Shown here: positions 3,404 to 38,290 of the stretch, one piece after another | How the letters are laid out: each line of letters begins with the position of its first letter | Numbering within the stretch: the stretch's first letter is position 1 | Virus record (IMG/VR): IMGVR_UViG_3300020047_004811 | Span: 1-64,000 of that record | DNA from: a virus | Taxonomy: Duplodnaviria > Caudoviricetes | Strand: one strand, 5' to 3' | Length of the DNA: 64,000 nucleotides | Made by a program: the position numbers and the translations under genes | Notes under the pieces: generated by a model | Database searches by the model: none | Told to the model about the DNA's origin: nothing | What the model saw: the letters and a program-made list of their open reading frames with translations, nothing else

Positions 3404-3483
3404 AGGCGAAACATGGGCAGTAATAGAGAGATAACTCTCATGAACCCCATGTCTGTACATTATATGTACACTGATGAGCCTAA
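3404..3483 (+). ncRNA. hammerhead ribozyme HH3 (type II) with bulged-G module in stem III
   Basis: AGGC-GAAA; stem III ACATGGG/CCCATGT; GUC(3451-3453); stem I TGTACA-TTATA-TGTACA; CTGATGA(3471-3477)-GCCTAA. Confidence 0.92.
3419..3447 (+). repeat. 29-nt RNA module, copy 1 (AGUA/GAA bulged-G motif plus GAGAG/CUCUC hairpin)
   Basis: 28/29 identical to 6273-6301. Confidence 0.85.
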
Positions 3484-4198: not shown

Positions 4199-4332
4199 AG
4201 GCGAAATAGGTTTGCTCCCTATGACTAGGCAGGCGATAGCTTCCCGAAGGTAGGAGTAAATAAGTAGAGTTTGTCAAGTAAAAACCAAACCTCTCACCTA
4301 TCTGTGCGTTATTCGTACACTGATGAGCCTAA
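4199..4332 (+). ncRNA. hammerhead ribozyme HH4 (type II) with ~85-nt insert in stem III
   Basis: AGGC-GAAA(4203-4206); stem III ATAGGT/ACCTAT; AUC(4300-4302); stem I TGTGCG-TTATT-CGTACA; CTGATGA(4320-4326)-GCCTAA. Confidence 0.88.
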
Positions 4333-5901: not shown

Positions 5902-5912
5902 CAAAGACAATT

Positions 5913-5947
5913 TTAGTCTTGCCCGCCAAAATCGGCTGGCTTAATTT
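5913..5947 (+). promoter_or_regulatory. 20-nt motif copy 2 overlapping a sigma70-like promoter
   Basis: TTGCCC(5919-5924)-N17-TAATTT(5942-5947). Confidence 0.45.
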
Positions 5948-5976
5948 TATGCCCATTTTATGGGCGAGGAGTATCT

Positions 5977-6264
5977 ATGTCACAGGTAAAAACTGCTTCA
6001 GGTCAATCAGAAATCAAACGTCTTGAGGAACAACTAAAAGCACTCAAGGCACAAATTCCTTCAGTTCAAAACAAGGAAATGAAGATCACATCTAAGATCG
6101 GAGAGAAGGGGACTGTAAACTTCTACGGTCTTCGTAAGTTTCCTATCTGCTTGTTTGCTTCGGAAGTTGCTAAACTTACTAAGCTCTTTAACTCCCCTGA
6201 GTTTCAAGAGTTTGTCAAGTCTAATGCTGAATCTCTCGCTAGAAAAGAAGTTAAAGCTGAATAA
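5977..6264 (+). CDS. hypothetical protein
   Basis: ORF track; SD GAGGAG. Confidence 0.7.
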   Translation: MSQVKTASGQSEIKRLEEQLKALKAQIPSVQNKEMKITSKIGEKGTVNFYGLRKFPICLFASEVAKLTKLFNSPEFQEFVKSNAESLARKEVKAE

Positions 6265-6267
6265 TTG

Positions 6268-6303
6268 TAGGTAGTAATAGAGAGGTAACTCTCATGAACC
6301 CTA
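6268..6303 (+). repeat. 29-nt RNA module, copy 2, closed by TAGG/CCTA
   Basis: AGTAATAGAGAGGTAACTCTCATGAACCC; the flanking helix differs from copy 1 but still pairs. Confidence 0.85.
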
Positions 6304-6457
6304 AAAGGCGAAGACAGTCTAGCCAAACTTTGTTAAAGGTTAAAGAATCGGCGTGGTGCTGATTCGCTGTTTAGTTCTTTCGATTTATAAATTACTCTTG
6401 GTATAGTGAACGGATAATGGGGATAGGATGCCGTATAGAGCCTCCCCGGCTATAACA

Positions 6458-6547
6458 AGGCGAAACGGCGAGGCTGGTGAGGCACCTCATAATCAAGGTT
6501 CAATTCCTTGAGCCGTTTAGTATTTATGATACTACTGATGAGCCTAA
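6458..6547 (+). ncRNA. hammerhead ribozyme HH5 (type II) with tRNA-like insert in stem III
   Basis: AGGC-GAAA; stem III ACGGC/GCCGT; GUU(6515-6517); stem I TAGTAT-TTATG-ATACTA; CTGATGA(6535-6541)-GCCTAA. Confidence 0.88.
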
Positions 6548-6563
6548 CAAAAAAGGAATTACT

Positions 6564-38171: not shown

Positions 38172-38290
38172 GAGCCGGTCTATGGTAGATAGCGCCCGGA
38201 GCTAATACTCCCAAGGCCTAGTTGGTTCGATTCCGACAAGGAACATGGTCTAGACTGTGGAGAGGGTTTCAAGTCCCTCCCGGCTTCCCT
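38172..38290 (+). ncRNA. non-canonical tRNA-like RNA with two T-loops
   Basis: 7-bp acceptor GAGCCGG/CCGGCTT; D-like CTAT-GGTAG-ATAG; GGAG-CTAATA-CTCC; inner GTTGG-TTCGATT-CCGAC; T arm GAGGG-TTTCAAGT-CCCTC; no CCA. Confidence 0.65.

Follow-up and report, generated by a model that had tools for sequence, protein, structure and literature searches.

The window analysed in the current study is the first 64 kb (64,000 nucleotides) of a phage genome of 87,316 bp, recorded in IMG/VR as IMGVR_UViG_3300020047_004811 and apparently derived from fresh water; the label W is used for the ribozyme under study and for the phage encoding it. A type II hammerhead ribozyme spans positions 6458-6545 of the window, between a 95-aa gene and a 71-aa ORF, and the extension of its stem III is the element considered here. 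The features of the locus are the following.

5977-6264, + strand: 95-aa gene upstream of the ribozyme, located directly after the COOH-NH2 ligase gene in all relatives
6458-6461, + strand: stem II 5' strand AGGC, pairing with GCCU 6542-6545; 100% paired in 10 homologues, with one double change
6462-6465, + strand: core GAAA (G12 A13 A14 A15.1), read from the sequence and invariant in the homologue alignment
6465-6469, + strand: stem III 5' strand, A15.1 and the acceptor-like CGGC, pairing with GCCGU 6512-6516
6470-6488, + strand: hairpin A, GAGG-C-UG / CA-CCUC with loop GUGAGG, from the MFE fold; the orthologues have a hairpin of unrelated sequence here
6489-6492, + strand: junction linker AUAA, unpaired in the fold; UUAAU, UUAAA or UAAU in homologues
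6493-6511, + strand: hairpin B, a T-arm look-alike by the T-arm consensus, with the 6-bp stem U-CAAGG/CCUUG-A and the 7-nt loop UUCAAUU (6499-6505)
6512-6516, + strand: stem III 3' strand, GCCG and U16.1, pairing with 6465-6469
6517, + strand: H17, a U in the triplet GUU 6515-6517, after which self-cleavage is predicted from hammerhead geometry
6518-6534, + strand: stem I hairpin UAGUAU-UUAUG-AUACUA, with compensatory changes among homologues at 5 of its 6 pairs
6535-6541, + strand: core CUGAUGA, from sequence and alignment
6542-6545, + strand: stem II 3' strand GCCU, pairing with AGGC 6458-6461
6553-6557, + strand: ribosome-binding site AAGGA, 3' of the hammerhead and 5' of the ORF
6564 (ATG) to 6779 (stop), + strand: very basic 71-aa ORF downstream of the ribozyme

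The 95-aa gene is also encoded in L026, L033, L030, L038, L040, L027, L037 and L151, with 45-80% identity by tblastn, and receives no assignment from Pfam or PHROG. The product of the 71-aa ORF is very rich in Arg and Lys; it has no family match in Pfam or PHROGs, and the sole homologue found is a partial one in L038. A survey of sequencing runs lists no RNA run containing the stretch, and the one DNA run listed covers positions 5904-6132 only. The spacer of 193 nt between the 95-aa gene and the hammerhead (6265-6457) is non-coding, and far exceeds in length the orthologous spacers of L026, L033 and L037 (0-70 nt). It contains a free-standing copy of a sarcin-ricin-like hairpin (6268-6303), just upstream of the W hammerhead, followed by AAAAGGCGAAGAC, similar to a type II hammerhead in its 5' half but with the core spoiled and, from this similarity, possibly a decayed ribozyme copy. 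An ORF that would start at GTG 6477 and run across the stem III insert was rejected, as its ribosome-binding site is improperly spaced and the orthologous inserts are unalignable yet structured.

Four type II hammerheads have been identified in the window (GAAA at 892, 3408, 4203 and 6462), on which the pattern scanner and the covariance model agree, together with one type III hammerhead that has a plain stem I and is cut after position 1358. The best explanation is that the early transcript of the phage is punctuated by these four type II and one type III ribozymes. Hammerhead arrays that flank genes of phages and prophages were described in 2011 and interpreted as a means of processing mRNA (Perreault et al. 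2011, PMC3088659).

The W ribozyme shows the type II permutation, with stem II open and the other two stems closed. Over its three core helices, 99.3% of the alignment cells of 10 homologues are paired and 7 pairs are changed on both sides, a level of pairing and covariation that is reached by none of 500 shuffles (slid controls, 27-48%). The pairing of CGGC 6466-6469 with GCCG 6512-6515, proposed in the earlier note as stem III, is thus found as described, within a type II hammerhead. The family-specific covariance model R1 scores the W hammerhead at 75.8 bits, and the covariance model built from homologues recovers the same set of ribozymes as the scanner over 654 kb. The Rfam model Hammerhead_II (RF02276) gives 17.0 bits in a 221-nt slice, below its gathering score of 37 because the 42-nt stem III insert is penalised. 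Weak Rfam matches appear only with this slice; on the whole window Rfam reports no hammerhead or tRNA match at gathering score or E<=1. From the arrangement of core and helices W is predicted to cleave itself after U6517. Pairing of loop I with the 3' tail was also considered: the best such duplex in W has 4 bp at +1.2 kcal/mol, and the orthologue in L026 has a 6-nt complement by eye for which the duplex calculation gives only 4 bp at -2.0 kcal/mol.

The Y-shaped stem III insert

The 42-nt insert folds at minimum free energy into a three-way junction, alone or inside the whole ribozyme (z -1.8 to -2.7), comprised of stem III, hairpin A, the AUAA linker and hairpin B. The fold adds two pairs, UG/CA, within hairpin A and a sixth pair, U6493-A6511, in hairpin B; the T loop of hairpin B would cap a helix of 11 stacked pairs. 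The hairpin GAGG 6470-6473 / CCUC 6485-6488, with a loop of 11 nt when these four pairs are taken alone, had been likened to a D loop; it is present and includes a GG, and the D-loop label is arbitrary. Two further pairings were set aside, namely loop-loop kissing between hairpins A and B, in which the 3-4 bp seen by eye are at chance level, and a switch pairing of CCUUG 6506-6510 with CAAGG 6456-6460, for which only 4 bp are possible in L037.

Searches of IMG/VR with single proteins gave almost no close kin. L002 is identical to the window over 1345 nt and then diverges, the ribozyme lying outside the part covered. A large protein collection, by contrast, contains ~900 homologues of the neighbouring COOH-NH2 ligase, on contigs of 85-92 kb, and the sample of relatives is made up of ten distinct loci around such homologues. 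Type II hammerheads occur in arrays at all ten, sharing their stem II and differing widely in their stem III inserts. A hammerhead immediately following the 95-aa gene is found in W, L026 (at 7731), L033 (at 3134) and L037 (at 5659), and the orthology of these four is fixed by the conserved gene upstream of them. They share the stem ACGGY/RCCGU and inserts of 42-45 nt. The linker reads UUAAU or UUAAA in the orthologues and in most homologues, and AUAA in W. The earlier note had staked its tRNA-like reading on conservation of the GG of hairpin A and of the UUCRA of hairpin B, and this conservation largely fails: the hairpin B loops of the three orthologues are GAAGUGAGUA, GAGCAAGU and UAGACCACGAG, none with UUCRA, and the GG is found in one of the three and is absent from most homologues.

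A wider class of ten hammerheads, referred to here as the Y class, includes the four orthologues together with L024 (the same element as L044/L105), L040 at 1306, L151 at 3347, L053, L038 at 3337 and L037 at 2911. Five of the six non-orthologous copies occupy the position of first ribozyme, and the sixth, L037 at 2911, precedes the ligase block. The design consists of the 5-bp stem ACGGY/RCCGU (AAGGU/GCCUU in L151), an immediate hairpin A, an A/U linker of 4-5 nt and a hairpin B that abuts the 3' strand. Folded on their own, 8 of the 10 members have this topology (W, L026, L033, L038, L024, L040, L151 and L053), with hairpin sequences that are unalignable. The retention of the topology despite unalignable hairpins shows that the Y shape is conserved and under selection. 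As judged from these sequence comparisons, the conserved feature is the Y shape, and the tRNA-like letters are not conserved.

T arms next to cleavage sites

The T arm proposed in the earlier note proved perfect in sequence. CAAGG (6494-6498), UUCAAUU (6499-6505) and CCUUG (6506-6510) fit the strict pattern with the pair G53-C61 and U54 U55 C56 R57 A58, and the hairpin stacks on the acceptor-like stem. UAAU and the T arm together make up 21 nt that recur without change in a tRNA-Ile of the crAss-like phage cr85_1, as its variable loop and T arm. The proposed location near an RNA 3' end also stands, since hammerhead geometry places the T arm 7 nt before the predicted cut at 6517.

A second T arm has been identified in L037 at 2911, in the non-orthologous hammerhead before the ligase block. 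Its hairpin B, CAAGG-UUCAACU-CCUUG, is identical to that of W at 16 of 17 positions and has the same structural position, 7 nt before the cut, with the sixth pair changed from U-A in W to A-U. The insert is longer (63 nt) and folds into a four-way, cloverleaf-like junction; hairpin A and the linker are unalignable with those of W, and the ligases of the two phages are 54% identical. Two lineages with a T arm of the W type were found, and the sharing between them may reflect selection or recent exchange. A third and different T arm, GAGGG-UUCAAUU-CUCUC, is located in L053 (minus strand, 500-560); a type III hammerhead has its cleavage site 9 nt further on, and relatives have ordinary hairpins in place of this T arm. 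The RNA between the ribozymes of L053 is ~330 nt long, and its 5' end UAAGGA is by eye complementary to its 3' end UCCUUA, a pairing that would place the cut ends side by side.

Over both strands of the pooled DNA (245 kb), about one match to the strict pattern is expected, and two probable chance matches in this DNA fall in coding sequence. A candidate in L003/L025 was likewise rejected as a chance match in coding DNA. Ribozyme-adjacent sequence, defined as the stem III inserts of hammerheads and the 30 nt before type III cleavage sites, amounts to ~1.5 kb, where 0.003 T arms are expected and 3 were found (P for two or more, ~6e-6). The T arms beside cleavage sites are therefore not due to chance, and within this group of phages T arms are found beside hammerhead cleavage sites repeatedly.

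Pattern scans of IMG/VR, JGI metagenome contigs and GTDB genomes for further T-arm hammerheads returned only chance matches or class members without such a T arm (L009/L044/L105, L053); the N{35,65} window of one IMG/VR and one JGI scan just misses inserts as long as that of L037 at 2911. More distant ligase-bearing phages of IMG/VR have a few simple type II hammerheads with no T arm. Elsewhere in the window, positions 38172-38290 encode a tRNA-like RNA in which an acceptor-like stem GAGCCGG/CCGGCUU is stacked on a T-arm-like hairpin, and which contains another strict T arm, at 38221; neither Rfam nor ARAGORN gives a match to this region at normal thresholds.

Modules in other ribozyme arms

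Hammerhead arms are usually regarded as passive helices. The arrays considered here have stem III, and in relatives stem I, carrying conserved and exchangeable modules: the Y junction, a sarcin-ricin-like loop, an AAAUUCCG loop, a whole tRNA and the T arm.

A genuine tRNA-Glu (ARAGORN, 1761-1832; Rfam, 49.3 bits) is nested in the stem I loop of a type III hammerhead at L026:1744-1875. In this ribozyme the cut follows CUUCCUC at 1750, with the tRNA starting 10 nt downstream, and CUGAUGAG is found at 1845. Its counterpart in the window, cut after 1358, has a plain stem I. Type III hammerheads are also found at L038:1-130 and L105:1700-1830, with an extended stem I closing a loop of ~50 nt, composed mostly of A, C and U with hardly any G.

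The hammerhead at 3408 has in its stem III (window 3412-3452) a conserved internal loop, AGUA opposite GAA or CAA, similar to the sarcin-ricin loop (loop E) and placed around a covarying hairpin. The same design has been identified in L026 at 3916, L027 at 4533, L030 at 4328, L034 at 4464, L036 at 793, L037 at 1209, L038 at 2417 and L040 at 3740. Another class of stem III inserts, 58-69 nt in length, is represented at L027:5478-5590, L030:5454-5570, L034:5448-5562 and L036:2247-2360; it has a linker of the UUAAA type and an inner hairpin whose stem covaries and whose conserved loop of 8-9 nt reads AAAUUCCG(A). The hammerhead at 4203 has an 84-nt stem III insert (window 4207-4302; L026:4920-5015, L033:518-626) that is conserved in blocks, for example GUAGGAGUAA and GAGUUUGUCAAGUAAAAAC, and is a structured RNA carried in a ribozyme arm.

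A gene of the Ro60/TROVE family (Pfam TROVE, vWA_Ro60) lies between the ligase and amidoligase genes at L027:8385-9947 and also at L028:5043-6605. Bacterial Ro60 proteins partner with Y RNAs bearing tRNA-like domains.

Since cleavage would occur directly 3' of stem III, each stem III module would form the end of the mRNA before it. If the modules control RNA stability or recruit tRNA enzymes, these ribozymes would install defined RNA ends and not only cut, and this principle would also be of use in designing synthetic operons. Should the T arm be nothing more than a cap, it represents a modest structural variant.

Interpretation and comparison with known systems

The reading preferred here, to which a probability of about 0.5 is given, takes the element as a Y-shaped module on stem III of a processing type II hammerhead, with hairpin B as an optional, probably tRNA-derived, T-loop cap. 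Most likely, to go by the sequences, the T arm is a tRNA-like piece that has been captured or exchanged among paralogous ribozymes; a tRNA origin is suggested by its likeness to the tRNA-Ile of cr85_1, and the T loop is best explained as an optional stabilising variant of hairpin B. The ribozyme would fold during transcription and cut after U6517. The upstream mRNA, encoding the ligase and the 95-aa protein, would then terminate in the compact Y module with a 2',3'-cyclic phosphate, and the module, as its position and conservation suggest, would block 3' exonucleases and clamp the folding of stem III. The downstream mRNA would begin with a 5'-OH and the stem I hairpin, just before its ribosome-binding site.

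This reading is favoured by the modules nested in ribozyme arms across the phage group; the T arms near cuts, taken with the true tRNA-Glu in stem I of L026, indicate that these phages place tRNAs and pieces of tRNA in ribozyme arms. Against it, the pseudoknot between loop I and the tail is not evident in W, and such a pseudoknot is needed by many type II hammerheads for fast cutting (PMC3088659). A simple tetraloop would close stem III equally well, and a role as folding clamp leaves the retention of the Y shape unexplained. The T arm retained at 16 of 17 positions amid differing flanks, together with the placement of T arms 7-9 nt before cuts, hints at a more specific tRNA-related role than that of a generic cap.

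The earlier note had gone further: it described a miniature tRNA-Met-like element, citing the heptamer CUCAUAA, and considered a decoy role against anticodon nucleases, or one as a tRNA-processing handle, conceivable. The heptamer is indeed present at 6486-6492, and no anticodon loop is formed by it, as hairpin A takes up CUC in its stem and the linker consists of AUAA, which aligns with UUAAU or UUAAA of the orthologues; the seven letters thus lie half in a stem and half in the junction, outside any 7-nt hairpin loop. ARAGORN finds no tRNA gene in the window or in the whole 87-kb genome, hence no tRNA-Met with which the heptamer could be compared. One given 7-mer is expected among 44 positions with p ~0.004, a value to be read with the fact that any anticodon loop could have been matched, and the match to the anticodon loop of tRNA-Met is coincidental. 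VapC-type anticodon nucleases cut initiator tRNA within the folded anticodon stem-loop. The idea that the heptamer acts as bait for such nucleases has only the literal 7-mer in its favour, and is most improbable given the paired CUC, the AUAA in the junction, the absence of an anticodon stem and the lack of a conserved CAU in the orthologues; the host, moreover, is apparently a freshwater bacterium. An ordinary hairpin that happens to read GGUUCAAUUCC would be compatible with the match expected in the 245 kb, with the two probable chance matches in coding DNA and with the modest z-scores of the fold, but the three T arms within ~1.5 kb and the occurrence of two near-identical copies at the same structural position of different ribozymes make a coincidence of this kind very unlikely.

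Two alternatives that take the T arm seriously, both unlikely, deserve more weight. Cleavage could yield a functional tRNA mimic at the RNA 3' end, an acceptor/T-arm minihelix of 11 stacked pairs that bears a T loop and ends in a one-base overhang with a cyclic phosphate; its recognition by tRNA enzymes of the host would decide what becomes of the upstream mRNA. Minihelices of this acceptor/T-arm kind serve as model substrates for bacterial RNase P, and TruB acts on a T stem-loop in isolation. The candidate enzymes include RNase P, releasing a tRNA-like RNA of ~53 nt in a manner comparable to MALAT1/mascRNA, TruB or TrmA, the CCA-adding enzyme after healing of the end, and ligases of the RtcB type. 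All the sequence determinants of a T arm are present in W; T arms occur 7, 7 and 9 nt before three cleavage sites where 0.003 are expected; and the arm shared with L037 is conserved while its flanks differ. The tRNA model (RF00005) and the mascRNA model (RF01684) give weak matches of 16.8 and 16.3 bits (E ~0.5 on 221 nt), which are nevertheless far under their gathering scores of 29 and 42.5, and ARAGORN is negative at normal settings and calls a tRNA only when forced at an 80% threshold. Other points also count against such a mimic: the stack has 11 pairs and not 12; the stem is followed by U/UAGU, with no discriminator and CCA, and would end in the cyclic phosphate; and the bases U8/N9 and the D arm are absent. 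The T loop is missing from the orthologous ribozymes of three relatives, and a mimic function would thus be dispensable. The broader proposal, that hammerhead cleavage at all three sites makes tRNA-like 3' ends (a T arm, an acceptor-type strand of 7-9 nt and a cyclic phosphate) that recruit RNase P, TruB/TrmA, the CCA enzyme or RtcB, by which the upstream RNA would be stabilised, marked, released or religated, is a decidedly doubtful one; if true, the MALAT1/mascRNA pathway would have a bacterial counterpart driven by ribozymes. The remaining alternative, marginally less likely than the minihelix mimic, is that of a relic in decay: stem III would at one time have contained a nested tRNA or tRNA-like gene, since eroded to a Y-shaped stub, with the T arm as the last recognisable piece, serving only to close the stem. 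The tRNA-Glu nested in an arm of L026 fits this history, as do the layout of the Y, which is that of a tRNA minus its D arm (stem, hairpin, 4-5 nt linker and a hairpin abutting the 3' strand), the fuller four-way insert of L037 at 2911 and the orthologues with no T loop. A neutral remnant should not, however, stay identical at 16 of 17 positions between phages whose ligases are 54% identical and whose hairpin A and linker are unalignable, and the compensatory turnover that maintains the Y shape shows selection.

Among known systems, W is close to the type II hammerheads of bacteria, prophages and phages (RF02276; PMC3088659), with which it shares the core, the circular permutation, the intergenic placement and the multi-copy arrays flanking phage genes. 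Where they have a short stem III loop, W has a 42-nt Y junction bearing a T-arm hairpin, and it differs from many of them in having no clear pseudoknot of loop I and tail. Searches of the literature turned up neither a T arm in a hammerhead arm nor a Y-shaped junction in stem III. The likeness of W to the T arm of tRNAs (RF00005) includes the G-C-closed stem, the UUCAAUU loop, the spacer of 4-5 nt before it, comparable to a variable loop, and the acceptor-like strand directly after it; unlike a tRNA, W has no D arm, anticodon arm, 7-bp acceptor stem or discriminator and CCA.

W is similar to MALAT1 mascRNA (RF01684) and to the tRNA-like structures of plant viruses in having a tRNA-like fold at or near an RNA 3' end, where processing leaves or frees a tRNA-shaped piece. 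Unlike mascRNA, the end in W would be made by a predicted self-cleaving ribozyme and not by RNase P and RNase Z. The HDV-like 'theta' ribozymes are self-cleaving and placed next to phage tRNAs. The tRNA coupled to them, like the tRNA-Glu of L026, is complete and presumably used in translation, whereas W carries a T arm on a stub only; what W has in common with both is a phage ribozyme physically coupled to a tRNA-shaped RNA.
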